Of a stretch of DNA of 64,000 nt, positions 1 through 56,127 are shown one piece after another. Every line of letters begins with the position of its first letter. Position 1 is the first letter of the stretch. The stretch spans positions 19,754,805 through 19,818,804 of the forward strand of contig OZ316894.1 in assembly GCA_973895155.1 (NCBI GenBank), given 5' to 3'. Both the position numbers and the translations under genes were made by a program. The notes under the pieces were generated by a model. The model saw only the letters and a program-made list of their open reading frames with translations. It did not search any database and was not told the DNA's origin. The stretch is from Marsupella aquatica. Its lineage: Eukaryota; Plantae; Marchantiophyta.

Positions 1-313
1 AAAAATGCCTATTAAGAAAAGTAAAGTACCTCAATAGTGTAGAGCCAATTGTGCAAATTGATGCGCATTTCCAATACATTCAATGAATTTACATCATGAA
101 GTTGAATATCTTGTAATTGCATTCATCATCATCCAACTTGTAGTTTTCACTCTTGAATAGTGAAGCATGGTGGGTGCCAGATACTATGAATAGGTAACCG
201 AACACCATAGGTTGCCTATTCAAGGCATCGGTACTCTACCTTGTTTCACAAACTCCTGCATGATGATGTCCACATAGAGACCTTCCTTCACAGACTCATG
301 CATGATGATGTCC

Positions 314-380
314 ACATGACGGAGGGGAATTGAACCCCTGATTGAGCATAAATCTCAATTTGCCAATCCGCCATCCCCTA
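314..380 (-). ncRNA. tRNA-like/Pol III A-box+B-box unit (degenerate) inside the transposon 3' end
   Basis: Minus strand reads TAGGGGA TGGCGGATTGG(A-box) CAAA TTGAG-ATTTATG-CTCAA (5-bp stem, 7-nt loop) TC AGGGG-TTCAATT-CCCCT (T-arm, B-box GGTTCAATTCC). The D-stem 3' strand and acceptor stem are defective. Confidence 0.5.
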
Positions 381-463
381 CTCTACTCCCTCCCACTAAC
401 CCTACACATGCATCACATACACACACAACAAACTACTTTTAATAAACAATAGTCAATTATATA

Positions 464-3400
464 TCACAATTTACTCACACTTTGAATGTATGTAGTCAAA
501 GCTTGCAAGTCACTTGCATCTAGTACATACACTCTATCAACTATCCCAGACTTCATTGTCAAGTTCACATTTGAAATTACCATCTCAATATCAATCCATT
601 GTCCATCTGTTGCATCATAAGTGAACAAAGTTTTGTTGTTACCAGTAGATTTGTACCAATTACACTGCAAGTGGCACACACTTCCACTCTGTCCAACTGC
701 AGGTACAGGTCTGTCCAACAGATCTATTGCTTTCCGACGTCTGACCCAATGGGAGCCATTCTTCTGTATCATAAACTCAATCCTACCCAACCAATATTCC
801 TTCTTTGCAGATGTTGCGTCAACAACAGGCCCTTTATCTATTCCCTTCCTCTTCTTTGACTTGGATGATCTGGTAGAAGGACCAACCTCTGCAGCAGACT
901 CAAACAAAACTGCTATATCAGTACCAATGTCAACCAAACAAGTCACAGAGTCACCATTTTCCTTCTCCTTACCAGTAGTGTAATAGGTCTTCTGGGCTAT
1001 CCTAGTTAGCCTATCCTTTGACATGAAAGGATTGCAGCACAATTGACTCACAAGAGTGGACTTGTAGATAGTCCTTCCCTCATAAGTTACAGTAGACACT
1101 ACTGACCGGGGTGTCTGCACATCAGTTAAGTCTGCTTGAACTCCAGCCAAGACATGCCTTACTTCATGTCCTAGTGTCTCCATCTCACAAAATGGGTTAG
1201 TGTCCACCTCAATCGAACAATCTTCAACTGTTAGTGGCTCAATACAATCCTGACTGTCCAGAGTGTCCCATGAATCAATCCGATTGAGATCTTCTTCAGG
1301 ATCTTCAAACTCTAGAAACTCTCCAATTGGGGGCTCAGGTCTAGGGCCTACAGTAGATCGATGCTCAATTGTGTCTTCAGCATCATCACATAACACAACC
1401 TCTTTCATGACACTTGTATCCGGCCAAGTCTCTGCCTCCACCTCCCAAGGTTGAACCCACCATCGTCTTTTTGCTGCTAGCAAAGAACTCCTTGGTGACA
1501 TGTTCAGCTTGCACAACAAATCCTTTGCTTCCTGCAAACCTTCCTTTAGAGCATCAACAACCAGCTCATTAGTCTGAACTGCAGAGTAATCAAATAAATT
1601 TGGAGCTTGTTCTCCTTCATCTAGAGGATGTAAAGTTGCCCAAACATGATCCTGTTTATCATGTGATCGACGTATCTTCAATCCCTCTGGTCCATACTCT
1701 AATCCAGCTAGTCGATTCAGTCCCACTGCACTGTCCAGTAGAGATCCAAAGTCATAATTTCTCTCATGGCCACTCATGCCACCTACCTTGCTGAAAAATA
1801 TCTCACAATAATCTGATCCCAGCAAGTGAAATGGAACTTGCAGATATGGGAACTTGTCCCGAAAGGCACAGATTAACAATACTACAAAATGACAAGACAT
1901 GTTGATATCATGGAAAGCCTGCACAGAAATCATGTTCTTCTCTGTGATAGATCCAGCATTCCCTGTCACAGAATGATCACCATACCTCAACCATAGCCTC
2001 CACAATCGGAAGAACCAAGATACCTTTGATGCCACGACAACACGGGTTCTTAGGTCATGCTTAACAGAGAAGAAAATATCTATGTAGTCTGCACAAACCT
2101 CCAAGTATATCATGGTCCCAAAGCTTCTATCATGACGAACATCTCGTCGCTCATACATATGCTGCAGGCAGGCCTGCACTCTCCTGGAAGCTATTCGTTG
2201 TGGGCCAGCCCAATTTTGTCTATCTGTCCTATTCACATCATCCCAATGCAAACCATGCTCATGAATTGCATAATGGTTATAAACAGATGTGACATATGAC
2301 AAAGATGCATGCTGATCACCAAGAACTAACATAGCAGACACTCGGTCCAATGGGTTAATTGCCTTCTTGCCATTGTGAGGTGGGTCTTGGTCTCCAAAAC
2401 CATATAGATCTCCATTCGGAAGTATGGACACTGAGTATTGCCACCCAACCCATCCTACACTGTACCTAGGAAAGGAACCATTCACAACAGTATAATCTTC
2501 CATCATCAATTTCCTACGACGAGCATCACCATCACTAGCATGGCCCAACAAAGGACCAACACTGTCTCTGCAATGTGTGTCCCACATGGACTTCAACTGC
2601 ACCCAATGCTCTCTTACCCAGGGAGCTCTAAACTTGTTACATGTTGGTAGAACACACAATGCCTTAGGCATCTTTGCATGCAGAGGATTGACAATGATTA
2701 CTCTAGCATACATGCCTTTGGCATACTGCTCAAAAGTACTTACAATCTTGTCATACCCTTCAGTACCTGCTCCAACCAGTACTTCCAAGCCAAAAGAACA
2801 TGTGTGCTCTTCTAAGGGGCCACAGAAACCAATGAGGGTGTCATATTTAGCTTCCCATCTGTCACACACAATAGAATACAGACATCAGTTCATGACATGC
2901 AAACTCACCCAACACATTCAAACAAACAAGCTAATTTACTACAGAGACAAAAACACAAACCTGGGTCTCTCTTTGATCCTTGTTTCATCCTCAGCAAACA
3001 TTACTGGTACATCTCCTACAATTCCAAGTGACTGCTTTGATGCACACAGTACTCTGCACACCTCCTGGAATATCTCTTTTCGAATGCCAGCTCTAAAGGG
3101 TGGGAGTTTTGCTCTATCACGTTTCAAGGTCTTCAGACCTGGACCACCTAGGTTAGCCTGGAAACAATGAGCCACTTGTCTGCCTCCAAACTGAAACATG
3201 GCTTGGGAGAAGGCCTTGGTTCTCTTACTGTATCGATAACCCTTAGCAACTCTCTGCAAGTTCTTAGCTACATCTGTCAGGAAATCCCATAACCCTTCCT
3301 TGCCACCAAAAGCACCACATCTATGTCCATTCACAATATTTCTCAGAAACAGTCTTAAATCTTTCCTATCATGGGCTACTCCTAATAAATCTTCTAGCTT

Positions 3401-5056
3401 CTTTCGCCTAACACTCAGGGCATAAATTTTCTGAGCCTGTTGTGCCAACAGCCAACGCTGTTTCCTAAAGCGAGTGGTGAGGTTACCAACATGTTCCCTC
3501 AGTTCGGTTTTGGTCAAGTATGCCAACCTCATCCCACCCTGTGTAGTCCTGTCTCCTCTCTACACTAATGCTTCCGCTTCCCTGTGCACACTGCCACGAA
3601 AATCATCTTCACGTTTTATAGAATCACATAGAGTGCAAGTGAGGTTTTGAAAACCACCTCCATTAATGGACACCCTGTGACATTGCTTGTGCCTAAAACA
3701 ACCTTGTATACCAACAACTGACTGACTAGTTACATTGAAAACCTCAGCACAGGTTGTATGGTCACAATCCCACACATTTCCTCCCTCTTGATCATCAAGT
3801 ATGCCTTTCACAGCCATAGAATCCCCTGTCCACTTCACCTCTGACTCCCACAGGCCCCAACAAAGCAAACTTAAACTTGGCTCAATGGAGGAATACAACC
3901 CACCTCTGCCTGAACTGCTCCCTGCAGCAGAGCTGTCCTCTCTAAAGAAATTCAGAATAGAATTTTGAGATGGAAACAGATCACGAGCATCAGGCTTCCT
4001 TGGTCTCCCCTTCTTCCCTGCCCTCAGTGCAGCCTGGGTACTGGTGACAACGTTCTCAAGTGCATCCATATGATCCCGACTGACAAGGTGTTGCCTTAAA
4101 TTGTGTTCCAAATTGGATTTCTTAGGGCACAAGTCAGTATGTAGCTTGCCACGGACTGTACATCTGACCTTAAACAGGAATGACCTCTGTGCAAATGTTG
4201 GATCAGTGGGAGATGGTGTGATAGAGAACACTTCTACCACCCCACCTACCTCTGCATTCAACTTTCCCACTATTTCCACACCAGCCCCTATTTGCATACT
4301 ATGATCAAACAGTGGTTGCTGTATAGTGTCAGCAGCCGTCACCAAAGCTCCAGCTAAACCCCTTCGCTTACACCAGTTCTCCTTGTGTTTAGGGTTGGTC
4401 AGGTGCTTTGTCTTGAAGTTGCTAAAGCAATTTGCGATGGACTTGAGCACCTGTGAAGTGGCTACATTCCCATAAGTCTCCCTACACTCTAAGCATTCTA
4501 GATGACCTCGACACTCCCCTCCCTCATCCCACGTCCGCACTTTCCACTTGTGCTCACCAAAGCCCTTCTGGTTTACCCAGGATCGTAGCTTCAACCACTC
4601 ATCATTCCAGGCCTTTGATGCAGCCTCAGACATGAGGTGAGACTCAAAGGAGCTTGTGACAGGCTGTATAGTAGCCTGTACTGGCACCCCTTGTGTTTGT
4701 CCTTGAGACAATGGAGTTGTGCCTGCCACATTGGACACAGTGGCAGCAGATGAATGAGAGGAACCAATAGTGACCCTCTCCGCAGGCAAGGCAACTAAGG
4801 GTAATTCTGCAATCACATAAATTGTCCCTTGAAGTTCAGTCACCCCAACAGTCTTCTCTGAAAAGCGCCGGACTCGACCAGGCAACCTCTCATCCCAAAA
4901 ATCAAAGTCAAACTCTACTGCACCAACACATTTTAGACGAAAATCTGCCAGAGTCTGCCCTTCTTTGAAGGACATGACACAGATTGGCGTATCAGGCTTT
5001 CCTCCCTCGTCACCCTTTTCTACCAATCTGACAGAGCTCATGCCTAGGTGTGCCAT
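464..5056 (-). pseudogene. P-element/THAP9-like DDE transposase, ~1,500 aa, interrupted by one in-frame TAG
   Basis: ORFs 3560-5056 and 2939-3532 share one frame (…EALV*RGDRTTQGGMRLA…, TAG at 3560-3562). A GT-AG intron at 2859-2960 joins EDETRIKERPR to WEAKYDTLIGFCG (P-type DE…D..IGF). Downstream motifs are ASDGD (2nd Asp), QDPPHNGKK (DxxH), DRQN and GSDYCEIFFSKVGG (catalytic Glu; cf. QDxLENFF). N-terminal CxxC…HxxxxxH zinc-finger-like units are present. Confidence 0.8.
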
Positions 5057-5387
5057 GATGGACAGTTATACAGGCTGTGAAAGTAAGGGAGATGGATTAG
5101 GTAGATGAACCTGTCATACAACAATGGACAGACATGGAAAAAGATCAGGACTCAAGTCAACCATTCACAATGTCATCTGAACACTCAATCTATTGTAGTC
5201 CATTTCAATTCATCAAAATTCCATTTTGTTCAACCAAATACTTAGGTCCCTTTCATTCATAGAAATACTTAAGTCCATAGCATTCAACCAAATACTTAAG
5301 TTCATATAATTTAGGTAGTCTTATGGGTCCACTACAAAAAAGGTTGAAGTTTGTAAGATGGTGGAATTTGTAGCAGTCATGATGTGT

Positions 5388-6083
5388 CTAGTCATGGGTA
5401 CTAGGGATATCAGAACCCTCTGGAATGACATGGCGATTACAGTAAATCATGCGCCACTGTCCAATGTCCCAGGTGTCTCGGCCCCTCACCCCTCTCCTCA
5501 AGTGCCTATCTGCTGTTGGTCCTTCATCACGACACCATGCACGAGGGCATCTACGACATTGGACAAAGTCCCAAATGCCCTCCCGATACTCCTTACAGAC
5601 CTCACAGTAATGTCGTGGGCATATAAAAGCATCGGGATGTGCATCAGGGTTATCTAGATGGTGGGTGAATGGCATTTCCCCCAATCGCAGAAGTGTCCGG
5701 AGGCAACCCACATGGTAAAATGAGTAGCAATCATCATGAGAACACTGGACCACAAGGGGCTCGTCTGTGCTGGGTCTCAAGGTTTTGCCAAGGAGCCCAC
5801 AACCAAAACATCTTCCTCTGTTTTGCTGACAGAGGTCACAGAGCCAAGCTGCAGCCCAATCATGACCTCTGGAAATGACAATGCGCTGACATGTAGGTCC
5901 ATGGCCATCTTCTTCATCAGGGTTGTGGCCATCAACTACATAATGAAAATGGCGACCACAAGGGCCATCACAGAACAAAATAGTTCCTCCCTCGTCACAT
6001 TCAAAACAACAAGGGGGATCCATACAAAGGTGCTCCCTATGCCCAAATCTTGGATCCAGCAACTGACGAGCGATGTGTGCCAT
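5388..6083 (-). CDS. EDM2-like composite (atypical triple) PHD-finger protein, transposon cargo
   Basis: CCFECDEGGTILFCDGPCGRHFH…CDLCQQNRGRCFGCG…QCSHDDCYSFYHVGC…FICPRHYCEVC…QCRRCPRAWC…W…MIYCNRHVI is collinear with the recalled Arabidopsis EDM2 PHD region (CxxCDNGG..LCCEG.C.RSFH…CRRCPKSYH…LIYC..H.I). First ATG is at 6083. Confidence 0.75.
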   Translation of the reverse strand: MAHIARQLLDPRFGHREHLCMDPPCCFECDEGGTILFCDGPCGRHFHYVVDGHNPDEEDGHGPTCQRIVISRGHDWAAAWLCDLCQQNRGRCFGCGLLGKTLRPSTDEPLVVQCSHDDCYSFYHVGCLRTLLRLGEMPFTHHLDNPDAHPDAFICPRHYCEVCKEYREGIWDFVQCRRCPRAWCRDEGPTADRHLRRGVRGRDTWDIGQWRMIYCNRHVIPEGSDIPSTHD

Positions 6084-6116
6084 GCTGAACAAGATCTGCA
6101 AAATTACCTTCAAAAA

Positions 6117-6689
6117 TTAGGGACAGGCATGTGATGTACCAGAAGGAGCAACAGTCCACCAACAATCACAGCCAGTAGCCTCCACTAGGGGCATCACTTC
6201 CCTGTGGGCTCCTTTGATCCATCCTGCAATATGAGGAATGCAGATTAGAAGTCAGCAACTTAAATGTGCATCATCATCACGGGCAGAACCTGGATGTGTC
6301 CCACCACAGACACAATCATTGATGAAATGACAAGTATTCCATGCTAGGCAACCGCCCCATGCCATTCTTGCCATGTACTGTGCAAAAGTCTGCACTATGT
6401 TTGAGTGACCTCCCCTACAACGATCACATGTTTGGGTGTGACAATGGAGACAAGCCTCCAGGAAGACACAGTCCTCGTCCAACACCCCAAGTGTCTGTTT
6501 AACTAGACGAATACTGTTTGGGACTAGTGGGGATGTATTCAGCCTCCTGTAATGGTGGTGAGGCAGACTTGGATAGCCCCAGGTCACAGCACAGTTTGCA
6601 GGCACGACCCCATTGTGAATCATCTTCACACGGAATCGCTCACCCTTCTGTTGATGGTACTCAGACAATGCACTGCGCGTCACAACCAT
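6117..6689 (-). CDS. Orphan Cys/His-rich protein (~170 aa), transposon cargo
   Basis: ATG at 6689 (MVVTRS…CLHCHTQTCDRC…CHFINDCVCGGTHP). A plausible 66-bp GT-AG intron at 6224-6289 with a CTGAC/CTAAT branch site continues in frame as GWIKGAHREVMPLVEATGCDCWW…ACP*. No family recognised. Confidence 0.4.
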
Positions 6690-6975
6690 CTTTAGTGCAC
6701 CTAGACTGAGATTGTGCTCACTCCAACAAAATGACAAGGCCACAACAAACAGGGTACGGGGGCCGACCTTTGCTCGGACCCTAAACTTCCCCACTTTCTG
6801 CCTTGCGCTAGAATGTCCCTGCAAAAAAAAGCAACTAATTTTTAAAAACCTACACACACCAAAGGAACTACACACTGCTCCAAGAACCAAACAACAAATC
6901 TGCAAAGAATTGTAGTAGACAAGCAACGCTTTATTAAATTGCTCCAAAACTGAGCAAGGTTACATTTACAGTAAG

Positions 6976-7443
6976 CTAAACATATTTACGTTTTGGCATG
7001 ATCAAGTTTACACTTCTCCAAACTGCACCTGCCTTATCCTGTTTTATCTTTTCTACTTTTCTCTTAGCGCAGTCTACCTCAGACTCTACCTCAGTCAACA
7101 TTAAGTTGAAAGGGCCTTCTTCCAGTAGGACTCCTGCTTTGAGGGATTCGCACATCCATTCAAATGAGACGACTTTCAATGCCTGCTCTTGAATGAGGGA
7201 ATTAACACCAGACCATGTCCACTTGGACATGACTGCTCTCCAAGAACCAGCAACAATGTGAGTGGTGTTGCTGGAAGCAATAGTGCAAAACTGACCATGA
7301 CGTTCAATTAGCTTTCTATGGAAAACTTCAAAACGGGCTCTTGAAAATTCATTTGGAACTAAGAAGGCATTCACACCCTGAAAAATTGGCTTCGAAACTG
7401 AACAGGGCAAAACCTTTGGTGTAGACTCATATCTACGACCCAT
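6976..7443 (-). CDS. BRCT-domain protein (resembles the N-terminal BRCT of DNA polymerase lambda), transposon cargo
   Basis: IFQGVNAFLV…RARFEVFHRKLIERHG…TTHIVA…KVVSFEWMCESLKAGVLLEEGPF matches the BRCT pattern F.G…G…THIV…V…W..ES..AG. It may splice to downstream exons (acceptor near 6820). Confidence 0.7.
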   Translation of the reverse strand: MGRRYESTPKVLPCSVSKPIFQGVNAFLVPNEFSRARFEVFHRKLIERHGQFCTIASSNTTHIVAGSWRAVMSKWTWSGVNSLIQEQALKVVSFEWMCESLKAGVLLEEGPFNLMLTEVESEVDCAKRKVEKIKQDKAGAVWRSVNLIMPKRKYV

Positions 7444-9060
7444 GGCACAGTCAACCCTAAAGCTAAAGGCCCTGTTGTCCTCTGCAACAATGTGGAGCTT
7501 ACTTGGATCCTAGCCTCCCCACAACTTCTGTAGTCGAATGAGAACCCGAACTCCTGCTCACCACCCAAGATTGAGTGAATCTGCACATTCCACAATGCAC
7601 AATTAAAACATATCACTATTCTGTCTCTGTACATTCAAATCAGTCAGACAATTGAATAATACTGCACAACTTCAACTATAGTACATACACCAGACCATAA
7701 CTGAAAAGAGGGGAGATCCACACCTGGAGTATGTTGTCTTCTGCACAACACTGATATAGAATACAACCCTAAACAACACGATCCGAGACCCACGTACCAC
7801 CAGTAAGTGAAGTCGCCCTACAAAGACAACAATGGAGCAAATAATTCAGAATGTAGCCCTTGCAGACAATAATGTTGACCTGCATTGTGACATCGTTCAC
7901 ACAAGCTTCCTTCAATACTCCGAGAAGATTTAGACTCTGACTGTCTGTCTGTCTACTACCTCCGCAATTCTACCTTGAGGTCCTACATTGAAGGCAACTC
8001 TGTGCATTCTGCTAAGCCAAGCTGCAACAAAACAAAACCAAAGAAGACTTTCATTCACTTTGGAACCCACAAAATGAGTCATTCATAGCAATGTTCATAC
8101 CTTCACAGCACAGCACAGTGCAGGATCAGATTGGATCTGATTTGGATGGCAAGCACTAATCACAATGAAGATCGAGCACCAAGCACCAATCACAACGAAG
8201 ATCGAGCACTGATCACAAAGGAAGCACCAATCACCAAGAAATAACTGATCACCGAGAACCACCAAGCAATGGGACCAAATAGAATGTCCCTTGCTGAGTT
8301 CACCCTAAATGGACAATCCTGCCAATGCGAGTGGGGATCAGATGTGCAACTTTTAAGAAGCTTCTACGCTGGATTTCAGGGTAGCTCTTTTCAAGGCAAT
8401 GCAATCACACAAGCTTGTGACTGTGACAACATAGACTTTGTTTGTCACTCCTGTGAAGTTTGCAAGCGGAGTGATAGATTCTAACCTGGCAGATGAAAGA
8501 CTTCCTTCACTCTTTCGCCCTCACCAAGCATTCCTTTTGGGTCCGTGTCTTTCTGCAAGCAATCACACAGCTCAATCCCGCAGCTAAAGAACCGGACAGC
8601 AGCAGCGAAGCAGCAATCCTCTAGCCGGCATCGCCCTCCTCTTGAATGAAAGGAAAGGAACACGTCGCAGGCAAAGAGGAAATGCTAGCAAACAGATAGC
8701 AACTGACATCGATGTGCGGCAACATTTGCAAGAGGAGCAACCTTCAAGGGCCCACATAAGCTAGGAGTATCACCTTCTTTCCGCCAACCTTCCGTGGAAT
8801 ATGTCCCTGGGCAGAACGCAGGGAAACCGGGAGCAGAACGCAGGGAAACCGGGAGGGAAACAAGCAAAAAGCTATGGTGGAGACCTCATCAGTTTCTATC
8901 AAGCTCGATCCAAACCAAGTAATAGTTGGCCTCACAATGTACCTCCTCTCCGAACTCGCCCCAGAACTTGTGGCAGCAGTAGCACTCAGTCTACCTCGAT
9001 CCTCTCCAATGTCGCGGCAGCGCAAAGTAGTCATAGTCACCCTCCAAAGTTGCGGCAGCG

Positions 9061-9335
9061 CAACGCAGCCCCGATTGTCACAAAGAAAGTTGAAGATCCT
9101 CCATGGCAGCACAGCGCAGCCCTTCCGATTGTCACAATGAAAGCGCATCGCAGCGCAGCCCCAGTCTCCCAATTGTCACAAAGAAAGTGCAGCGTAGCCC
9201 CTCCTGATTGTCACGATGAAAGCGCAACACAGCCCCTCCCGATTGTCACAAAGAAAGCAAAGCGCAGCCCCTCTCAATTCTCACGAAGAAAGTCACGGTA
9301 GTGCATGCAGCCCTCCCAATTGTCACGAAGAAAGT
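9061..9335. repeat. Subterminal tandem array, ~7 degenerate copies of a ~33-bp unit CAGCGCAGCCCCTCCCGATTGTCACRAWGAAAG
   Basis: The core ATTGTCAC(A/G)A(A/T)GAAAG recurs seven times, once as ATTCTCAC. Confidence 0.85.
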
Positions 9336-9362
9336 GAACATTGAGTTTGAAACTCAATGTTC
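9336..9362. repeat. Perfect 13-bp-arm palindrome GAACATTGAGTTT-G-AAACTCAATGTTC
   Basis: Read directly; abuts the tandem array. Confidence 0.9.
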
Positions 9363-10180
9363 GCGCGTCCTCCCTCAACCTCGGGCCCACAATCCTCGTC
9401 CCCTACAACCACCACCCGAGCCATTGTGCACCGTCAGATCTTAAACCCTAAACATCGACAGCCCTTGCAAACCCTGAGTGGCATCATCGGTCCCTCGGGG
9501 TCCCTTAACCCACTTTAGACCCCATCCCAATAAACCCCAAATAGAAATAGTTGACAATTATAAAGTTTGGTTACAATAGGGCAAAAATTGAAACATTCAT
9601 GTTGCGGCAAAAAATCATATTTACCACCTAAAAACACGTGTCATAATTACAAGGAGACATGTGGTCCAATATAAACATGACGCGTGTCGCATGAACATAT
9701 GACAATAAATTCCCTAACTTTTTTGGACACCTTCCGTGGAATATGTCCCAATTAAAAAATGCCTATTGTTCTTTAAAGCGGCCCAATAATTAAAACGGAC
9801 CCTTTTGTTCTTCCACCAATCTTCGGAAGTCTTTCGCCAAACTCAATTAAATGGCCCTATACTTCGTCGCACGTGATGTGGCACTTCTGCGGAAGTGACC
9901 CCCCAAGCTCGGGATGTTACTGCCCTTGATGTAATTTAGAGGTGAAAAGATGATGTCGTCCTTAGAATTGACTGTTGAGTTGACATGTTACTATCATAGG
10001 TAGGTGGGTCTAATGAGAGGAGAACATCTTTTCTTATTTTTTCTATTACCTCTATAAAGTATTTCTTCCACGAGAGTTAAGATAGCTCACAATGGCGTGG
10101 ACTCTTTTGGATTAAAAATCACAAGTAATAACCTCTAGGCCAAACTCCCTTGGGTGTGAAGGGAGGTTTCCAATTCAAAC

Positions 10181-10477
10181 CTTGGGGGTCTCACTTCCAC
10201 AAAAATGGCATATCACGTACGACAAAGGATAGGGTCATTTTATTGGTTCTAAGGGAAGACTTAAGAATTTTTGTAGAAGAACAATAGGGTCTTTTAAATT
10301 CAATTTTGAGACTTATAAGAACATTAGGGTCTTTTTAATCCAATTTTTAGAATATTCCAAGAATATTCCAACTTTATAGGGGTTAAAAAATAAATTTGTT
10401 TTCTTACATTTTAGGGGGTCCGAGGCCTAAAAACGTCGCAGGCGATGGGGAGGTCCCCATATAGTGAGACCCCCGAG
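10181..10477 (+). mobile_element. MITE copy 1 (15-bp TIR CTYGGGGGTCTCACT, 8-bp TSD ATTCAAAC)
   Basis: TIRs at 10181-10195 and 10463-10477; ATTCAAAC at 10173-10180 and 10478-10485; no coding capacity. Confidence 0.92.
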
Positions 10478-13294
10478 ATTCAAACCTTACCAGTCTTTTG
10501 CTATGAACAGGCCCAGATTGAAACAAGAAAATAAACAGAGTCATGGGCTCAGATGATATCTCCATCAATATCATTACAGTCATATGGAATCCCAAATTGT
10601 TCTTTTTATGAAATGCTAACTCTAACTTTTTACTCTAAGTCCATGCTATCCTACTAAAATGCACAATTACATAAGATCATTTAAGATTAGTAAGCCTGAT
10701 GGTAGCAAAAGATTTGGGATTGGGACAGTTGCACCAAGAGAAAGCATATATTGTAATGCATGTTATCAACGTGTATGTAAGGTATTAGAAATGCATTACA
10801 ATATGCATACGGAGCTACTCCTGTACTATCTACATGCACAATTTCAAACAATTTCCATTCTAAGTTATTTCCATAACATACAAATCCACAATTTTCAGAG
10901 ACTTTCATGTTCCGAATGGTTTTCTGACATAGGCCCTTCCATTCCCTACATAAGATATCAACATTTGGCCAATGCCTTGCAGATGGTCTAGTTAATTCCT
11001 TTGCAGATTAAATGTTCGTTGTTGCACAATTTCCCGACGCAGGTTTAGTGAACGTAAAGACATAGCTCGTAGAGAATATTTACCTCTCATCAATCTGTCG
11101 CAAAAATGCCGAGCTCAAGAATGTTGATTGTAGCGTGCCAACAGCTCAAGATCTCACACTAAACACGATAGATAAATATCTGCATTGTGACATGTAAAGT
11201 AACACATATCAATGACAGACAAAAATGATCAAGTGGCCCACAAAGCAAAGTAGTCCAAAACTTAACATAGAATCAAACATCGTCAATTGTGCGTAAAAGT
11301 TGCACACTTACTTTGTCAAATGCATCAAACATAGACTGAAGTAGCCAACTTATACTCAGTCAGTCCACTTGAACTGTGCGAGCATGCCTTGGATACCCAT
11401 TTGAACACCGCACACATCTGACTTATGAACACCTTGGATACCCGTTTGAACACCTAACATGTCTTATCTACCTACATAATAGTAAATCTACCTAGACAAC
11501 AATCCAACTAATCCATCCATATATGGTGCCGCTTTATAATTGTCTTTGTTGGGTATAATTGTCTATGGTGGGTTGTTTAAAGACCCGACAAAAAACATTA
11601 GTTAAACATTACGCTTGGCTCTTATTTAATGTTTTCACGCACCTTCACAATAAGGCTACTTGAAGGTGTTATGCATGTCTCATAAATACAAAGATAAAGG
11701 TACAATAACAAACTCATCAATAGACAAAGAATCTATCGAAACATGGCGGCATAACATAGCCGCGTTCATTGACACATATTGGACACAACCTAATTTTAAC
11801 TTCACAAGCAATAATTATCACTTTGCGCATGGCAAGTGGCATCAACCCCACATGCGTTACAATTCTCGCACGCCTTATCGGTCAAACACACATTACGTTT
11901 TTTGTACAAGTAAAACCTGTCCATTGATTACGGACTAAACCATGTTACATTGACCATTGATCAATGAAACAAGTCTATCAATGGTTCTAAATAAATTCTT
12001 GTCACATTTTTGCCTTATGTACTATCCAAGTTTATATTAGAATTTGGCACCATAAAACATGTATCATTTGTGCATAGAAATGATCGATATTCTTCACGCT
12101 AGCCACACGTGTGTTCTCAACCATCACACGAGTGACAACCCATGTTGCACGATCTACACCATCGATAAATAAAATCCAACGAACATGAATTGGTGACGTT
12201 AATTTTCTTGTTATTTATAAATTTACAAGAGTCTCTAACTGGACACGTAACAATTGTGAAGAAACAGTGGACAGCTTGCATGAAAGTAAAATCTACTAAA
12301 AACTAGGGTATGTTAGAAGTTAAAACAGAAAGACATTAACCATATTGTCTTCACTTAGGTCACATTGCAGATCAGGCGGCGTCGGCCAATAATTTCATGG
12401 TTGTCCCAACGTGTATCAACCATCCAAGGTTGGGCCTTGTCTCAACCGTGCAGTTCATGGTTGAGGCACGCTTGACCATAAATTTCATAGTAGCTATCGT
12501 TGGTCACGATATATCAAGAAAAATTCATTATAGAAACTATTAGGAGAACTTCTGTCTGACACAAAAGTGTGAGAGGGGTCCTAGTTGGTAACAATACTTT
12601 GAAAGGGTTTTATCAATCATGTAAAATGTTTTTGCTTGGTCACTCCCATAAAGAATATATCTCCCTAGAAATGGTTCATTCCCCAAAGCCATAAACAAGA
12701 GAATGTGTCTTATGATATTGTGTATGGTCATGACTCTCCTATGGGTTTACTCACAACCTCTACTAGTCTTTTTTAGTTTGGTACTAGGTAGAGCTTTAGT
12801 TCCTTGGCCAATAATATGGACTCATAGGCATTTTGGCTCTTTAGTTTTCCTTGTTTGTTCTTTGTTTTCTCCCTTTGATACAGGTTTCTGCCTTTGGGTC
12901 TCCCTACCTTTGGGATCTCATCTCCTGGTTAGACACTCTTGTTTCTTTTGCAATCTGATATATATATCCCTATCACTCTAATCATAATTTATTGGAGCCT
13001 AGATGGACTTTTATGTTTGCCAAAAGGTGGTATACATTTTGAAACCCCAATGGACTTGATTGTGGACATTGAGTGATCGAGTGCTCTTTAGAACTTCATA
13101 GCTCTCTCAATTCTTTATGAAAATTAGAAATATTGGAGTGATCGGAGAGATGCATGCCTCATCTAAAGATCCCAAGAAGAGCCTATTGAGCTTGATAGGA
13201 GAGAGATCCTAAAGATCAAAGATATTTATGATCAAACTTTCTGGAAACAAACCAAAAAGGTGTCAATGAATGAAGTTGTAACATTTGTCACTGC

Positions 13295-13587
13295 CTCGGG
13301 GGTTTCACTTCCACAAAAATGGCATATCACGTGCGACGAAGGATAGGGTCATTTTATTGGTTGTAAGGGAAGACTTAAGAATTTTTGTAGAAGAACAATA
13401 GGGTCTTTTAAATTCAATTTTGAGACTTATAAGAACATTAGGGCCTTTTTAATCCAATTTTTGGAATATTCCAAGAATATTCTAACTTATAGGGGTTAAA
13501 AAATATTTTTTTCTTACATTTTAGGGGGTCCAAGGCCTAAAAATGTCGCAGGTGATGGGGAGGTCCCCATGTAGTGAGACCCCCGAG
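13295..13587 (+). mobile_element. MITE copy 2, same family (8-bp TSD GTCACTGC)
   Basis: Nearly identical to 10181-10477 over its full length. GTCACTGC at 13287-13294 and 13588-13595 differs from the copy-1 TSD, so this is an independent insertion. Confidence 0.92.
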
Positions 13588-22516: not shown

Positions 22517-23182
22517 AATGACTGCGGCTGCTGTTTTCCAGCTCAGTAGAGGATAAGGGAGCCTCGAAAGAAAGACCAAGAATAACGTTTCCTCGTGAAT
22601 GGAAAAGAATGTGGCTGCTGTTTTCCAGCACAGTAGAGGATACGAGGGCCTTGAAAGAAAGACCGAAAATATCAATTCCTTTTCAATAGGGCGTCTCAAA
22701 TATGGAAAAAAAAATGACCTCACGGGCAGCCTGCGAAACCCTCGGGTGCACCAAAAGTGGGTACACCCGGTCTGTTTTTTTTGGGGTAGTCAACATTGAG
22801 CGGGTTGTGACACTTGCATCGAACACTTGTAAGCGTGACTCTCGACCTTCAACAGTCTTGGGCATGGTCCCGCTTGCAAAATTCACATATTTGAGAAGCC
22901 CTAATGAAATGAAAGAATGTGGCTTTTTTCCAGCTCAATAGAGGATAAGAGGGTCTTGAAAGAAAGACCCAAAATATAGTTTCCTCTTCAATGGAATGAA
23001 AGAATGTGGATGCTGTTTTCCACTTCAGTAGAGGATAAGAGGGCCTTGAAAGAAAGACCTAAAATATAGTTTCCTTTTCAATAATGAAAGAATGTGGATG
23101 CGTTTTCCACTTCAGTAGAGGATACGAGGGCCTTGAAAGAAAGACCTAAAATATAGTTCATCTTCAATAATGAAAGAATGTG
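22517..23182. repeat. Minisatellite, ~87-88-bp unit, 5-6 copies, interrupted by a MITE
   Basis: GAATGTGG…TTTTCCA..TCA.TAGAGGATA.GAGGG..TTGAAAGAAAGACC recurs; GAAAGAATGT starts near 22911, 22998, 23086 and 23172. Confidence 0.85.
22688..22902. mobile_element. 215-bp MITE, PIF/Harbinger-like (17-bp TIR AGGGC(G/T)TCTCAAATATG, 3-bp TSD AAT)
   Basis: TIRs have one mismatch; AAT at 22685-22687 and 22903-22905. Removing the element restores the minisatellite unit (TCAATG.AATGAAAGAATG). A TA-TSD reading is also possible. Confidence 0.8.
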
Positions 23183-45649: not shown

Positions 45650-47921
45650 TCAGCATGAACGTCCAAGTGGCATAAAATTAAGGCCGGCATCTTCGGGTCG
45701 TCTCAGCCCGCAATTGATCAGAAATGCGAGATGCATTTCTGCATGGGGCCTGGGTAAAGCTGCCTCTAATTTCTCCAATAAAGCAGCTTCCCTGGCGTGA
45801 CCCTCTTCCTTCTCTCTCCTCAATCTGTCGGCCTCTGCGGCTCTCTGTGCCTCTCTGGTTACCGCATTAGCTTGGACTTCAAACACCCTTTGCAACTGTG
45901 CCGACTTTGCGTTTATCTCTGATTGCAATTTCGCCTTCTCCATACCTGCCAGCACGAACGCCACTAGTTACGTGGGTGTCACTCAACACGGCCCCGATAC
46001 TTAATCCCAGTCACAAGCTCCCACCGATAAATATGAGTAATGTCAGTCCAGTACGGACTTCAGCTGCAGTCGAGGCTATTGAACGAACTGCTGTTTTACA
46101 TAAAGAAATTAAATAAATTCTCGAAAAATGGAAGACTATTGGGTCACTGGACGTCTTTGCCTCCCGAACGTCCTAAACTAAATTGACGATTTAAGTGTCT
46201 GCATTTTCCCTAGCTGTATCGGCTCAGTGTGGACATACGATGCGATTCCTATTTGAACGGTCCATTTAACCACTGGCTGCATCGGTTTACAGGATAAACA
46301 TTTGAAAAGCAAAAAACGAGACTGACAATTATAAATGTAGAGAACGGCAAAGAAATGACAGGATCAGACCGCCCGGCCAGAAATAACCTGATGTGTGTTG
46401 AACAGTTTCAAGTCTTTGGACAGCATTTTCTAATCTTGATCTCAGCCTCTCGAACTCATGGTTTGCTGTGACACAAGTTCTTTCCCGTTCCGCGACTAGT
46501 GCAGCTTTCTCGGACTGCAATTGAGTGATTTCCATTTTTGTGCGTGACTCTGTTTCCTCTTTCTCTGTGGCCATTTCTTCCTTCTCTAAAATGATGTTCT
46601 TCAAACTGCGTGCCGTACTCTCTAGGCTCGATTTCAACCGTCGGATCTCTGCACCTGCTATTTCTTTAGCAGTGTGCATCTCGCTACGCAGCTTTTCGTT
46701 AAGACACTCTATCTTCTCGAGCTCCAGCCCAGCGGCTTTATCAGCCTTTGCTACTACTTCTTCTTTCTCTCGAAGTAGCTCTTCAGTACTCAAACGAATT
46801 TGCTTTACCTCTTCATTCGCGGCTTCCAGACGACAAAGCATATCTTGGGTGGCCAAACTTGTCTTTGACTCCGCCTCCTCTTTTCCTTTCATCAATGCAT
46901 CTTTCTCAGAACTCAGTTGGGTGAACTTTCTCTCCGTCGCAGCCAAGGAGGACTGCAAATTCAGGATCTGCAATTCTTTCTTTTCCTTGCTATACCGGGT
47001 TTCCTGGATTACTTGTGCCGCCGCAGCCAGGGACGACTGCAAATTCAGGATCTGCATTTCTTTCTTTTCCTCGCTATCTCGGGTTTCCTGGAGCGCCTGT
47101 GCGTTCTCAAAGCGTAACTTGTCGATTTCTGAGTATTTTCCAGCCGTGTCTAATTCTACCTGTTCTTTAAACACTAGAGCTTTTGACATGACGAAAGCGG
47201 CAAGGATGTTAACAGCATCTCTGATCACGCGTTGTCTTCGAAATTCGTCGAGCTTTAAAGATGCCGCTGCTTCCTTCTTCACTAGATTGGCGTTCTCCAA
47301 CTGCAAATTCGCAATGTCTCCAGCGGCAGCTTCATTGGAGATTCGCAGGTGCGATAACTCCAATGTTGCAGCTTCGTGAAAGGTCCGCAGCCGAGCTAAT
47401 TCCGAGGCTACGGCTTCATTTAAAGTCCGCTGCTGAGCTAGCTCAGTTGTAATTGCTGAAACTCCGCAATTTTCCTGGTTCCTCTCTTTCTCGTAGGCTA
47501 CTAAAATCGAGCGCGTAAGACTTGCTAAGTGCAGGATCATCGATCTGACCGATCCATCAGTGGGATATTCGCTTGCTAGCCGTTTTCCCTTCTCCAATGG
47601 TCCGCGTTTGAGAAAATCATCGTCCTTCTGAGTCAGAGGAAAGTTGCCTTGCTGTCGGGCTTGCTGTGGCCGTTTGGAAGGCAGGTATGCATCGTTATCT
47701 GGATTGGACCTTTTCTTTTGTGACTCCTGCGTCAATTGTCCAATCAGATCCAGATTGTCTGAACGCCGTGGTGACGTTTCACTGAGGGAAGTAGAGCCCC
47801 TTGATTTTTTGCGGAGGTCGTCCGTAAGCACCTTCGAGTAGCGTGAGTTCCGCTTTCTCGGTGTAGATCGCGTCAAGCAAGCACTCGGTGTACATGTACT
47901 AGAGTCGACCGATGGTGGCAT
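45650..47921 (-). CDS. Orphan long coiled-coil protein (>=2 exons; 5' end uncertain)
   Basis: 530-codon open frame with a disordered N-terminus and an E/K/A/L-rich heptad region. It contains an internal 28-aa duplication (Q..QETR.S.EKKE.QILNLQSSLAA). A phase-1 intron at 45946-46387 joins HTS-G-MEKAKLQ. Confidence 0.55.
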
Positions 47922-50900
47922 CTTGATGTACTGAAGACCTCTCGCAGACTTCTCGCAGCTTCGATTAATGTATATCGACCCGGCAGTGACGAAGAATCAA
48001 TCTCTGCATGAAGACAATGAACCTTCTTAACATCATGCACAAATTTCGTACTTCGTTGCATCTGTTGCATTGAGCTCCCTAGCACTCGGACTACCGTTTT
48101 TAACTGAAGAATAAAGAAATTTTATCCGTATACTGTGGTAATTACATCGCTCACGAAAACTTTGCACATCCCTGAAAGACTCGTCTGTGATAGTTTTGGA
48201 TTATGCGGACTTCATACACTGATAGACCTGCTGGATATACGCCATAATTAGCTACGTAGACTGTCATACGAAAATCAAATGACCACTAATTCCTATGTTG
48301 TGATACTTTCATGAGTTACACTCGATTGATTACCCTTGCAATTTTCGTAGCGGTCGACAGCGGCTATTAATCATCGACCTGGTCATCGACAAGTCCAGAT
48401 TCGAAACACAAATATTTTGGCTAGTACGTAAATGCAGGTCAATTCTGGAAATTGTTAGTAAATTAAAACCTCCAAAGAGATACATAAAATTCAAGAAGGA
48501 CGTAGTAGCTACATTGATGTGTAAACAACATTAATTTGATCAGTTGAAGTAGTAGAAGGAAGAATTAAAATACCTACGCTTGGAATTTCCAGCATTCAAC
48601 AGCAATGCAGATCTCCGCAGTCGGTGATATCCCTGGCATGGACTTACTCGTACGTACTCGTCTCGAACCCTGACTCGCCGATCTGGAGTAAGCCTACATC
48701 ACCGCATTGCAGCTCGAACTACTGCAGGTAGGTCGGCTCGCAGGCATCCACAGAGACAATGCCGAAGAATGCACTGCTTCTGGCGACGAGCGACATTCAT
48801 CCCGTGCATTTAGATCTTAGGTGCACGCACTCTCCGGACGCAACTGAGACAGATCTGAGCGCCAATTTTGTTGCAGCTCTACTTGTCGAGACGGATTGAT
48901 TTCTCTGCCTTTCAATTTCAGCAGCTCACTATCGATCGGCGACGTTCGATACCAGTTTCTAAACCCCGCTCGCGCCATAATGTGGCGATCGATGCACATC
49001 TCCAATCTGAAACGCAATCGCGACCGTGGACGTATGTTCGAATGGCGGAGGCGATGATGGAGCCAGCCTTGGATCGATCCACAAAAGAGGCGCCAGCACG
49101 TACATATGTATGCCTTACATATATAGGTATAAATGTACGTACAATGTATGCATCACATTATACGTATTAATGTACGTATATATATCCATGTATATATGTA
49201 TTATTGTACGTACATATATGCATGTACGCACATACCTGCAAGTGTGCAAAGTTGCAACTCGCCGGTGTCGCAGTCATAGCTGTGTCATGTTTTAGTGTTT
49301 TAGTTGTTAATTTGGTCTTTCCGGAGTCTTTCTCCCCTTTATTTGACCCTTAGGTGTTTCATGTTTTGGTTTTTTAAATTGTTGGTTTGGCCTTTTGGGG
49401 GTCTCTACTTGTTCGTCTTCTTCCCCTTAGGGCATAACTGAAGGTGGGATACAAACAAAAAGCAGGGATGAGGCATAGATGAATCAGAAATAAAGGGAAA
49501 CCCTTTTTTCTGGAAGGTTTTTTTCCTCTCTCCTCAACTCATCTTATTTATGTTCGATGGACAGGTAATCAGGCTAGTATCTCCAAAAGAACTCTAAATC
49601 TGAAACCTGAACACTAGGCAACTTTTTTAACTTCTTAGTTTGTACAGGTAAAGGTCAGTTGAAAAGCAAAAGATTGGTAGAGCTCCAGGTAAAGCACACA
49701 TTTGAAACCTACAACATTAAATTAGAGAAAATATGTGTGATTGCTCAAAAATGTAAACTGATTGTAAGCTAAAGGCAAGGACATTTCTTCCCTTCCCACT
49801 ATTTCCACCATCCATTTCATGTTAGCACATAGTTGCTTCAAACATGGCAAGAACATGACAAAACAAATTCAGTCAGACACAAAAACAATGGGAGGTTAGT
49901 ATACAGTTTGGCTAGTATAATTTGGTGAGATCTGTACCCAAACAAAAGAGTGGTTTTCTCACCATGAGCTTGAGACCATGTGCTAACTTGTATCTTTCTG
50001 AGCACTATAATGTGCATTTGATGGTTGATGGTTTGCATCAAACAGGTTGTGCCCCAAAACCTAAAATTGCAACTAAAGTTTTATGCCCCAATAAGTAGAC
50101 CCCTGCTACAATATTGGTTGTAGTGTTTTAAATATGGGTATTGGTGTTTTATAATATGGAATAGTTGTCTAGCATAAATGAGGTGACAGGCGTGCATTGC
50201 ACATTGTTGTCAATAGGAAGAGATATTGAGGATGCACATTGTTGTGAATAGTGAGAGATATTAAGGGGAAGTGTTGGCAAGCATGAGCCATATGACCAGG
50301 CAGTTAGACATAGGAGGGAGTTGGCAAGTCAACCTGGCAACTACATTTCAAGGAGTGTGCAGTTGGGCATAGGAAAATGCACAATGACATCTTGAGATCC
50401 TTAGGAATTAATGTCACTATAATCAAATGATCAAAACAAATATCCGCCAAAAATGACATTTTCTAAGCAAACCATGAGAAAGAAAGACCAAATGAGATTG
50501 CCTGCCAAATGACATGTGCTAAACAAACCATGAGAAAAAAAGACCAAATGAGATTGCCCGTTATAGTATCTACACTAGAAGGTTAAATAGATGGGGGTGC
50601 CCTGAATATTGATACAGTACTCTCCTTAACTCATCAAATTGCATAGTATAGTGTTCAGATAAATACTTAGCACAATCGAATTGCATATTCATTTGTTGTG
50701 CTGAGATTTAGATAGATAACACAATCCTTGCCCAGAAAACTGACACATCTTGGACTCTGTTTTACTCATCAAATGGGACCGCTGGCCCCTGTAGCTACCT
50801 CAACTTGGCCAAAGGAGGCGAGGGGTATGGTGACAGTGGACAAGACACAAACTGTCACGCGAAGTTCCACGTGGGAAGTGGGATGTTTGCATCGTCAATT

Positions 50901-53216: not shown

Positions 53217-56127
53217 ATGGGAACTACGTCATGTGTGCTCTTTGCACTCAGTTGCTTGCTGGTTTTGACTCATTCCGAGTTGTTGCAAACCGAAGCGTTT
53301 TGCAGCAAATACGTTGAACCCGAAGGCTACTCCTGCCACGAACATAAGGTACGAACTTCATAGTTTTCTGGAGATCAACTACGTATCCAGATTTCGCTTA
53401 CAGCATTTCGAGATCAAATCTTGAAGATTACTTGCTCGATCCATAATTTCTCCGGTTCATTTGTGCCAGGAGAATAGTGAAGTATATCTTAAAGTTCTAA
53501 ACGATTTATTTACGATGCCGGAACTATTACCCAGCCCGTTGCTTTAAATGCTTTCATTTGCATTGTGCTTTTCTGCAGTTATACACGGAAGATGGCTACG
53601 GGCTTCTCTTGCACAGAGTGGGAATCAAAGGCGAGGGCAGAGGTGGGAAAGGACCACTCCCCGGTTCCATCTCAGCCTCCACGAACGAGAGATACAGAGG
53701 TTTTCCAGAATCCCCGGGGCTTCAACGATCTCAGTCCCGGATGCAACCAGCTGATGAATCAGTTAGTACAGGCTTTGGTGCAGCACTCAGCGAGTATCCG
53801 AACCAAGCCATTGCATCTCGAAGGGGCAGTCCCGTGCTTCTTCTACATCCTGAGATGTTGAACGGAGATAGTTGGTTCAAGCACGCGGATCTAGAGAACC
53901 AAACCGCACGGCTGCCCTTCCTCCTAGCAGATGAGGGCTTCGATGTCTGGGTTGGACATCTTCGAGCAACTCAGTGGAGCCATGACCATGTGTCCATTTC
54001 GCATCACGAGCCGGTAATGAATTAAGCATAGCATGTCGTCTTGCATGTCCGTTTGTTTTGGTTACTCCGAGATCATTTCTCAATTGTCAGTTTCGTGAAC
54101 CTAGAAAAGCAATTATCTAGAACAGCAAAGAAAGTGAACACCGCAGCGAAGACACCTACTGACCAAGCGATTCTTTACGCAGGCGTATTGGAACTGGACA
54201 TGGGATCAACTAGCACAGCATGACTTGCCTACTATGTTGCAATTTTTGGCAAATGAGACGGGTGGAAAAGTACATGTTGTAGGCTTCTCGCAGGTAAGCT
54301 GAGTTGATAGAGTCCATGACTCGCGGGTCTTTGTCGGGCTCGAATTCTTTGAGTGGTGTGATTAAACATATGTGTGGTGTATCTTGCGAATGGTAGATCT
54401 TGAGCAGCTTCCGTGATGAAATGCAGGGTGCCACGGTTGGAGCGGCAGCCGCTACAAGGGCAAAGGTCGCAGGGCAGATGAAATCTCTCACTTTAATCGG
54501 ACCTACGATGTACCGTGGAGTAAGAAACCCTCTTCTTACGGGACCATGGGCAGGATTCCTACGTGACTTGCTGCGAGAGGTAATGTGATACCTACGTAGT
54601 AATCGATAACAAACGGGATCTCAAGCTGCCGTAGTATTCTGCTGCATATAATCTATTTTGACTAAAACACGTCACATTGTCAATGTGAGACTCCATTTGG
54701 ATATAAAGGTCGATCGAGCTAGTGACAATCGTACCGTGGGATAAATGCGCAGATCACACACCAAATCGCAGCATCGCCAGGGTGGGTCAACTTTACTAGG
54801 TCAGTTTATTTTCAAAACTATGACATCTGTTGTTCGTTTGAAGAGGCTGAAGACGAGTAGGGAGAAGGAGCAATTAATTACTCCTCACTTGTGCTTACTA
54901 GGTCAGTTTATTTTCAAAACTATGACATCTGTTGTTCGTTTGAAGAGGCTGAAGACGAGTAGGGAGAAGGAGCAATTAATTACTCCTCACTTGTGCTACA
55001 AAAATGAACCTTATCTCTCATGCTCTCGTATAGTACTAACATTGGACCTGTAACGGCGCTTGCTCCTGCTCGAGAAATTGTTTTCCTGCATAGATTTAGA
55101 ACTATACGCTGACTTGACTTCTGGAACTTGATCGTTAGGGATATGGGGGAGTTAGCCAATTTCCAGCCGATTCTTCCGCTGACAGGACCTCGAGCAGAAC
55201 TGCGATTCCCAATCTCAGGTGAGTTAGACTCCAGTTGTTCGCAATGATTTCGTCTTCGATCGTGTTCTCTCCCTTATGAACTGCATTGTGCTACGGCATG
55301 TGCACCGGTTTTGACGCAACAACCCTCGTCCGTGCTGCTCGGAGTGAATTTCCATGAACGTGCGTCCATTTCTTTCAAATAATGATCGATCTGATCGCCA
55401 GATGGATTCCGGCTTTTACAGTGAGCAGCCCCTGTCGAATTATCATCACGGTACTGTGTGATAATCATGGCGAGGGAAATCCCTGCTAAATGTATGAGTC
55501 TGGAACTAATAATAAAATCAATGTGGTGCGAGACGTCGTTAATAATGTAAGTTTTGCACGTATATATATATTGCCTGATTGTACATGTGGCTCGCGTATC
55601 AACTCCGACAGGTCCTGATTGCTGCTTAAGTCCATCACTCTCTTTGATTGACAACGGATGGGATGGAACCACATCGTCCAGCAACATCGAGCATTTCCAT
55701 CAAGGTAAGTTCCAGTGGTACCTTGTTCATGTTGAGTAAATTGTATGTCGATCTGGCCGGCTGTCCCAGTTGCTGCAAGTGGTAACAAATTTTTCTTTTC
55801 GTGGTCACAGCTTTGATGACACCTAACTGGAGGAAGTTCGACCACGGTACGGGACAGCTCAATATTGAGGCGTATGGAAGCCCTACGCCCCCGGATTACG
55901 AGCCTAAAGATATCCCGGCCGATCTTCCAGTGCTAATTATCTACGGACAAAAAGATTTATATTCCCCAGCGGAGGGAGTCGAGGAATTCATCACTTCAAT
56001 GCAGAGCCTACCTTCAATTGTGTCTCTATCGGATTACGCCCACTTAGATCTCTTCTTCAGTACAAATCGCATGCAAGATGTTTATGACCGCGTTAGCACG
56101 TTCCTTGGATCCAATGCGACGGCCTAG
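53217..56127 (+). CDS. Triacylglycerol/acid lipase (gastric/lysosomal lipase-like alpha/beta hydrolase, LIP1/MPL1-like)
   Basis: Signal peptide, then C…GYSC.EH/TEDGY.L.LHRV, LADEGFDVWVG, YWNWTWDQLAQHDLP, nucleophile GFSQG across an intron, GPDCC, GQKD (Asp) and DYAHLD (His). Exons at 53217-53348, 53579-54013, 54183-54293, 54427-54579 and last 55811-56127; middle exons uncertain. Confidence 0.85.
54793..54997. repeat. Perfect 102-bp tandem duplication in a lipase intron
   Basis: TTACTAGGTCAG…CTCACTTGTGC starts at 54793 and 54895. Confidence 0.9.

Follow-up and report, generated by a model that had tools for sequence, protein, structure and literature searches.

The first 9,907 nucleotides of a 64,000-nucleotide stretch of the genome of the liverwort Marsupella aquatica (contig OZ316894.1 of assembly GCA_973895155.1, positions 19,754,805 to 19,818,804 of the forward strand; hereafter the window) are best read, though with only modest confidence in the whole, as a defective member of a P-like cut-and-paste transposon family present in multiple copies. 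Its transposase is predicted to carry a BAH-like domain at the C-terminus, and two accessory genes, one encoding an array of PHD fingers and the other a BRCT-like module, have likely been retained in its sub-lineage, with a proposed role in reading host chromatin. Four open frames follow one another on the minus strand in the order BRCT-like (7443-6976), Cys/His-rich (6689-6252), PHD (6083-5388) and transposase (5056-464), so that the BRCT-like and PHD frames sit between the 5' terminal inverted repeat (TIR) and the transposase. That this is a P-like element with the cargo inside it is very probable. The original prediction, made from the sequence of the window, described four tightly packed, co-oriented minus-strand genes. 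The order and orientation stand, but the status of the Cys/His-rich frame as a gene is unproven, and tight packing is limited to the 3' two-thirds of the unit, because no Pfam match was obtained in the frames scanned across the 2.4 kb at 7444-9907.

The transposase

The transposase comprises some 1,496 codons (5056-464, minus strand) in three open blocks that align end to end with single homologs, and the full-length family members P0280 and P0253 are of comparable size (1,492-1,523 amino acids, aa). Exon 1 (2961-5056) encodes an N-terminal Cys/His zinc-finger-like region and the first catalytic Asp, in the motif AEDETR (2995-2978). It is followed by a predicted GT-AG intron of 102 nt (2859-2960), assigned from the sequence and from continuity with homologs, and by exon 2 (464-2858), which encodes the RNase H-like core with the second Asp (HASDGD), a D(2)H motif (DQDPPH, 2392-2375) and the Glu (GSDYCE). 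Across the aligned members the DDE triad is kept as AEDET, ASDGD and the Glu of SDxCE, and the D(2)H motif after the second Asp is kept as DQDxxH. Exon 1 also contains a premature TAG at 3560-3562, which interrupts the transposase, and the window copy is therefore regarded as broken. An intron removing this TAG was considered and rejected, since homologs hold exactly one codon at that place; the TAG is not among the 40 variants listed of a total of 1,244.

The predicted model of the transposase has its best fold matches in the Drosophila P-element transposase structures 6p5a and 6pe2 (Z 19); for 6p5a the comparison gave Z 19.1 and a root-mean-square deviation (rmsd) of 4.3 over 296 aligned residues. 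Hermes, which should be the closest fold if the enzyme belonged to the hAT superfamily, gave Z 5.9 and rmsd 7.7. In a Foldseek search all E-values were above 0.001, with P-element rows at probability 1.00. By its motifs and predicted fold the transposase is of P type, as the original prediction of a giant P-type transposase had it. The P superfamily is further characterised by use of GTP as a cofactor. In sequence the protein is far less readily recognised: Pfam gave no transposase match for the window copy and a TNP-like RNase H match in one of 31 aligned members, and PDB sequence searches with the transposase returned nothing useful. No THAP match was found by Pfam on the N-terminal 498 aa or on the full-length homologs P0253 and P0280, and for this reason the element is described as P-like rather than as a member of the canonical P family.

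CpG is depleted most strongly in the transposase (observed to expected 0.22-0.25), less so in the cargo (0.38-0.39) and least in the remainder of the window (0.70), and the transposase shows no depletion of CHG. The low CpG is consistent with long exposure of the element to CG methylation.

Relatives, termini and target-site duplications

Scoring of 7,992 candidates gave 99 transposase homologs, and the representative library gave 1,331 at E 0.001. The named relatives come from the liverworts Riccia sorocarpa and R. fluitans, the fern Adiantum nelumboides and the coral Desmophyllum pertusum. P0001 is the closest transposase, at 62% identity, and in a FastTree analysis of 127 rows covering at least 330 core residues (107 after removal of those 85% alike), the window copy groups with P0001 and P0002 (SH 100); four R. 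sorocarpa proteins form the sister group (SH 99). This placement by itself would point to a non-seed land plant, perhaps a liverwort, as the host. A metagenome scan with the transposase alignment produced 52 pattern matches, which resolved into 23 loci, two of which have TIRs at both ends. One of these, L002, is a complete element of 6,096 bp (192-6287), apparently intact, with a perfect TIR, an 8-bp target-site duplication (TSD) and one uninterrupted transposase frame. The other, L001, spans 8,758 bp between TIRs related to those of the window element, and its flanking sequences do not match each other. No relative turned up when viral contigs were scanned with the transposase and PHD alignments, or genome contigs with the transposase alignment. 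Among more distant transposase relatives (P0153, P0176, P0185 and P0148), other added domains were seen: C1_2, a UCH-like stretch, SAP and a weak PHD.

The minus-strand terminus of the window element lies at 9907. From it some 160 nt can be aligned by blastn, at 74% identity, to the 5' ends of two miniature inverted-repeat transposable elements (MITEs) nearby: one of 297 bp (10181-10477, plus strand), from a sister family, and one of 293 bp (13295-13587, plus strand) that is 94% identical to it. Both have TIRs and a perfect 8-bp TSD. The 5' TIR of the element (9891-9907, minus strand), of the C-T-Y-G-run-TCACTTCC type, aligns with both MITE termini and is near-identical to the TIR of L002, while the subterminal region that element and MITEs have in common extends over 9751-9907 (minus strand; 156-160 nt for each MITE). 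The defined terminus that had been claimed at 9907 is thus borne out by two TSD-flanked MITEs and by a complete relative. From the 8-bp duplications of both MITEs and of L002, the TSD of the element is predicted at 9908-9915, its second copy falling outside the window. The opposite end is probably close beyond the window edge, since positions 1-13 (minus strand) repeat a 13-nt word of the 5' subterminal repeat, and of 2000 100-nt pieces drawn at random from the window none has a 13-mer in common with the 5' 250 nt of the element.

A tandem array of a unit of about 35 bp, with at least seven copies of a 24-nt core, occupies 9046-9336 (repeat family D7). The 5' non-coding region also contains two copies of the same 21-nt word, at 8787-8807 and 9729-9749, which may be a binding site. 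The summed contig depth over the two MITEs is about a thousand-fold that of unique flanks, which indicates that the MITE family is very abundant; between them, at 10900-12200, the depth is several-fold above unique flanks and points to another repeat family.

Passages of PMC3698922 list as features of P transposases the DDE triad, the D(2)H motif, TIRs, an 8-bp TSD and associated MITEs. The DDE triad, the D(2)H motif and the associated MITEs, as well as the fold, are shared by the present element with the P superfamily (Drosophila P element, 1360, Galileo and THAP9). The 8-bp TSD, within the 7-8 bp of that superfamily, is that of the MITEs and L002; TIRs at both ends were seen in L001, L002 and the MITEs, and for the present copy one end lies in the window. 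An 8-bp TSD is common to the P and hAT superfamilies and does not discriminate between them. There are also differences: a transposase of about 1,500 aa against about 750-820 aa, Cys/His fingers with no THAP match, a predicted BAH-like C-terminus, accessory frames, a G-run TIR, a land-plant host, and a sequence mostly missed by the Pfam TNP-like RNase H profile.

A predicted BAH-like domain at the transposase C-terminus

The last 160 or so residues of the transposase (467-950, minus strand) are predicted from fold matches to form a BAH-like barrel. BAH domains already appeared among the structure matches, those of Foldseek included, for the whole transposase model. When the domain was folded alone (mean predicted local distance difference test score 69) and 48,161 representative chains were ranked against it, BAH domains took ranks 1-7, with Z 6.5-7.3, rmsd 2.5-4.2 and 78-93 aligned residues. 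These seven chains are from DNMT1, EBS, ORC1, MTA1, ZMET2, DIM2 and ORC1b, and BAH-bearing entries fill 15 of the first 18 rows. A pattern of GxD, W-x-G-R, W-Y/F and D..VI is kept in the domain, and its profile matches 97 of the retrieved proteins, among which are the members checked from Riccia, Adiantum and the coral; it misses 13 of the 27 listed by name. The domain was overlooked in the original prediction, and if correctly modelled it strengthens the idea that the element reads chromatin.

An SH3-like domain is also found at the C-terminus of retroviral integrases, and it is conceivable, if rather doubtful, that element and cargo are real but that the barrel represents a generic domain of SH3-like type for DNA binding or assembly, with PHD and BRCT acting as decoys or transposition cofactors instead of chromatin readers. 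A number of results speak for this and against a BAH domain. All Z-scores are below 8, with chromo, Tudor and PWWP barrels at 5-6.5, and other SH3-like barrels thus come within about one Z unit of the BAH rows; the loop between the first strands is basic; Pfam BAH reached E 0.15, under the cut-off, in one of 20 members; and a PDB profile search with the C-terminal domain gave no match. The aromatic cage also appears incomplete. For the BAH domain of AIPP3, sections of PMC7718874 give a Tyr-Trp-Tyr cage (Y149, W170 and Y172). When these positions are mapped onto the present domain by sequence motif, and not by superposition, position 107 is aromatic in 18 of 19 rows, position 152 in all 20 and position 154 in none of the 20, so that two cage positions appear kept and the third is non-aromatic throughout. 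Against the generic barrel, BAH fills the top seven places in a search that was not biased towards it, the number of aligned residues is 78-93 as compared with 56-83 for most Tudor and chromo rows, and the pattern of conserved residues named above is kept. The label BAH-like is used here in preference to BAH because Z is below 8 and the support from sequence is faint. Binding to the nucleosome surface appears as plausible for the BAH-like domain as methyl-lysine reading.

The accessory frames

The PHD frame (5388-6083, minus strand) encodes 231 aa comprising a stand-alone finger array of the EDM2/NSD type, with a C4HC3 unit, a C4HC2H unit and a third, partial unit. It matches Pfam PHD_NSD with 37.4 bits against a cut-off of 23.9 (E 3e-9), and among the Atlas clusters it lies closest to streptophyte PHD_NSD proteins (0.92, 190 of 256 features). 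The C4HC3 and C4HC2H units are described for EDM2 and NSD1 in passages of PMC3776765. Judged by ligand pattern, PHD_NSD match and nearest clusters, the approximately 2.5 atypical PHD units with C4HC2H that distinguish the EDM2 family are present. The ELP methyltransferase-like, PGR, acidic and proline-rich regions that complete EDM2, the partner of ASI1/IBM2 (PMC7529245, in part), are not: the frame and its homologs, at 211-247 aa, consist of fingers only. The claim of an EDM2-like PHD gene accordingly stands as to the fingers, which score well over the PHD_NSD cut-off, and falls as to ELP and the other EDM2 domains. Stand-alone homologs P0240-P0244 (three matches among 75 candidates and two further cluster members) are 55-67% identical; 28 of the 34 Cys/His residues are kept in both P0240 and P0241, and the start Met is aligned to a Met in all three aligned homologs, for which reason splicing of the Cys/His-rich frame into the PHD frame was set aside. 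A PDB sequence search with the PHD frame gave nothing useful beyond a weak KDM5B PHD match.

The BRCT-like frame (6976-7443, minus strand; 155 aa) stands alone likewise and was recognised through Pfam BRCT, profile matches and a homolog. Its Pfam score is just under the cut-off (19.4 against 21.3 bits, E 0.0013). It lies nearest to the REV1 BRCT (profile match E 3e-5), with a weak match to Pol lambda, and among 22 candidates one stand-alone homolog was found, P0275, at 63% identity. The DNA-repair cargo that had been proposed is not borne out as stated, for there is a single BRCT-like adaptor and no enzyme. At 7268-7275, inside this frame, some contigs of runs X2, X4 and X5 diverge from the window sequence, which may reflect variant subfamilies or insertions. 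Upstream on the minus strand (7560-8100), several splice-like signals suggest a spliced 5' leader; the frames there gave no Pfam match.

The Cys/His-rich frame (6252-6689, minus strand) is an open frame of 145 aa from its first ATG. It matches no Pfam family and is at most a putative gene; its excess of synonymous changes has P 0.09. Splicing of the BRCT-like frame into it was considered as a candidate on the strength of splice signals.

Copies, conservation and origin of the cargo

The window stretch is present in six of eight listed sequencing runs, representing three organism codes and four studies (one run may be the source sample), and the PHD, Cys/His-rich and BRCT-like frames are all covered in runs of three coded organisms. 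Summed contig depths in runs X1, X2 and X4 are 224, 2294 and 3419 at position 5785 in the PHD frame, and 263, 1557 and 2006 at position 2035 in the transposase, against 18, 28-34 and 35-85 for unique flank contigs. The depth is ten- to forty-fold above unique flanks over transposase, PHD and Cys/His-rich frames, and somewhat lower over the BRCT-like frame; contig depth is not equal to copy number and is read here only as multi-copy. Homologs P0244 (PHD) and P0275 (BRCT), at 63-66% identity, were each found on a Logan contig 3,209 bp long, the window frames themselves spanning about 2.1 kb, and the two are probably on one and the same contig, which would link the cargo frames physically in another species. 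The cargo and the nearest transposase are equally diverged (62-66% identity).

Within region 6240-7460, none of the 12 indels listed (of 15) falls in the Cys/His-rich frame, and those in the BRCT-like frame are confined to its ends (a 6-bp in-frame loss and small losses from the tail), while the spacer between the frames is indel-rich. Since the cargo is multi-copy and intact frames are conserved at 55-66% identity in other records, a one-off capture of the Pack type is disfavoured: such a capture should yield fragmentary, decaying and copy-specific host pieces, and what is found are whole modules, multi-copy and intact. The PHD and BRCT cargo is therefore not absent from other copies, and we infer with fair assurance that both modules, which look old, have been kept by selection.

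Several findings nonetheless tell against an accessory cassette that belongs to the element. The left TIR and a matching TSD are not in view, the expected left terminus and the CTCGGGAT duplication falling beyond the window edge. No listed contig runs from the cargo to the transposase, no homologous cassette could be linked to a transposase, and the shared contig of P0244 and P0275 is deduced from equal size only. The depth over 7.5-9.3 kb is several-fold lower, from which it appears that many copies differ there. The excess of synonymous changes is not significant (Cys/His-rich frame 7 of 15, P 0.09; BRCT-like frame 5 of 14, P 0.33; pooled 12 of 29, P 0.08), these shares being drawn from the variants listed, which are biased to changes private to the window copy. 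Finally, the BRCT-Cys/His-PHD cassette is found in none of the 23 related loci by tblastn and profile search, complete L002 included. It is accordingly a trait of one branch and not, as had been supposed, of the family; a weak BRCT-profile signal in L011/L012 was dismissed as a chance match (E 0.07, opposite strand). Inside the TIRs of L001, downstream of the transposase, there is another extra frame (7018-7524, 169 aa), which matches no Pfam family and is unlike the window cargo.

The absence of the cassette from all 23 loci, the different extra frame of L001, which suggests that the family picks up sequence, and the lack of a significant synonymous excess would all be explained if the cassette were a host locus carried as a passive passenger by Pack-type capture, the homologous frames elsewhere then being host genes. 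This we consider improbable. The frames are single modules of compact size that appear to lack introns and share a start Met, unlike the multi-domain EDM2; copies diverged by up to 18% are gap-free over the BRCT core and most of the Cys/His-rich frame, in contrast to the indel-rich spacer; and the divergence of the cargo equals that of the nearest transposase.

The cassette might also have arrived with a second mobile element, for example a remnant of KDZ/Zisupton type, inserted between 5' TIR and transposase and then co-amplified. KDZ fragments are the nearest Atlas clusters of the Cys/His-rich frame (0.90, 125 of 256 features), and the drop in depth over 7.5-9.3 kb would fit. The Atlas result is, however, below the recognition threshold and below the count of shared features typical of true members; there is no Pfam KDZ match; no internal TIR pair occurs among the 25 inverted repeats listed of 60; none of the 15 joints listed of 245 skips the cassette; and every frame is co-oriented with the transposase. 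Such a nested origin is thus decidedly unlikely, and accessory genes of a P-like element remain the preferred account of the cassette.

Proposed role and comparison with known systems

Intact copies of the element would produce a transposase of about 1,500 aa that binds the termini and excises the element or its MITEs, with reinsertion generating the 8-bp duplication. The BAH-like barrel could tether the transposase to nucleosomes, while the enzyme-less PHD protein, by analogy with EDM2, which binds H3K9me2 chromatin, might bind H3 tails in silenced chromatin and so protect the element's own transcription or steer its insertion, copying the host pairing of BAH and PHD. The BRCT module might recruit, or compete for, repair factors at the breaks made by excision and insertion. 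Whether the cargo serves the element by reading chromatin is an evenly poised question; a role specifically in anti-silencing, suggested by the EDM2 analogy, is rather unlikely. It is no more than a speculative extension to see here an overlooked P-like lineage of liverworts, ferns, corals and other eukaryotes with BAH in the transposase, of which one land-plant branch has added selected PHD and BRCT genes, and in which a copied BAH-PHD reader both protects the element and picks the chromatin for insertion.

Co-reading of chromatin by BAH and PHD in the host is described for AIPP3 (PMC7718874, in part). With host EDM2 (ASI1-AIPP1-EDM2) and with AIPP3-AIPP2 (BAH-PHD-CPL2), the element has in common an EDM2/NSD-type PHD array with C4HC2H and the pairing of a BAH-like domain with PHD. 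It differs from these complexes in that the PHD protein is a finger array only, the BAH-like domain is fused to a transposase and has an apparently incomplete cage, there is no RRM, and the proteins are encoded by a mobile element. The VANDAL elements (MULEs), as portrayed in parts of PMC5735166, are plant DNA transposons with an accessory anti-silencing gene, VANC, and tandem repeats in non-coding DNA; their accessory anti-silencing genes are also treated in passages of PMC13317346, and accessory proteins of transposable elements (TEs) in general in passages of PMC13547354. The window element is likewise a plant DNA transposon with accessory genes and non-coding tandem repeats (the array at 9046-9336), but it belongs to a different superfamily, and its cargo has a fold of histone-reader type, in contrast to VANC, which recognises particular DNA motifs and demethylates cognate copies through tandem motifs. 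If a transposon has indeed retained an EDM2-type reader that lacks an enzyme, this would represent a route of counter-silencing separate from VANC and would offer a handle on the reading of bryophyte-type heterochromatin.

Capture of readers by TEs is common: sections of 10.1101/2021.11.30.470311 report 823 candidate fusion gene models, mostly with PHD and Chromo. The present case resembles such fusions and the chromoviruses in that a TE appears to have captured a chromatin reader. It differs in that PHD is a separate frame; moreover, the survey was based on TE domains in Pfam, and these fail to detect the window transposase. The sections of the same article contain no BAH-transposase fusion or P-type plant case, though its table of TE fusions could list BAH. 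A BAH-like domain on a cut-and-paste transposase, if real, would amount to a novel form of intrinsic chromatin tether, comparable to the chromodomain of chromoviruses. In the main-text portions of recent TE papers, PMC13547354 and PMC13317346 among them, BAH and PHD do not occur, nor do PHD or P element in the GingerRoot paper. No BAH-bearing P-like transposase or EDM2-type cargo was found in the published literature, Repbase and most subscription papers lying outside the search. A survey of 1,007 plant genomes with profiles for 17 superfamilies, P included, reports in the parts available recently active autonomous elements in seven, not including P (PMC12973397). The present lineage escapes Pfam P profiles yet has the apparently intact L002, members in Riccia and Adiantum, and abundant MITEs, and annotation of seed-free plants therefore likely misses it.

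Other features of the window

Imperfect repeat arrays with a unit of 85-110 bp occupy 22517-23170 and 60483-61251. An exon on the minus strand at 32787-33098 matches RPE65/carotenoid oxygenase (E 3e-14), and a lipase-like fragment with a weak Abhydro_lipase match lies on the plus strand at 53501-54022. The minus strand also holds a coiled-coil-like open frame of 555 aa with no clear family (46329-47996) and, running off the window end at 62376-63998, three in-frame open blocks split by single stops, possibly a decayed mobile element.

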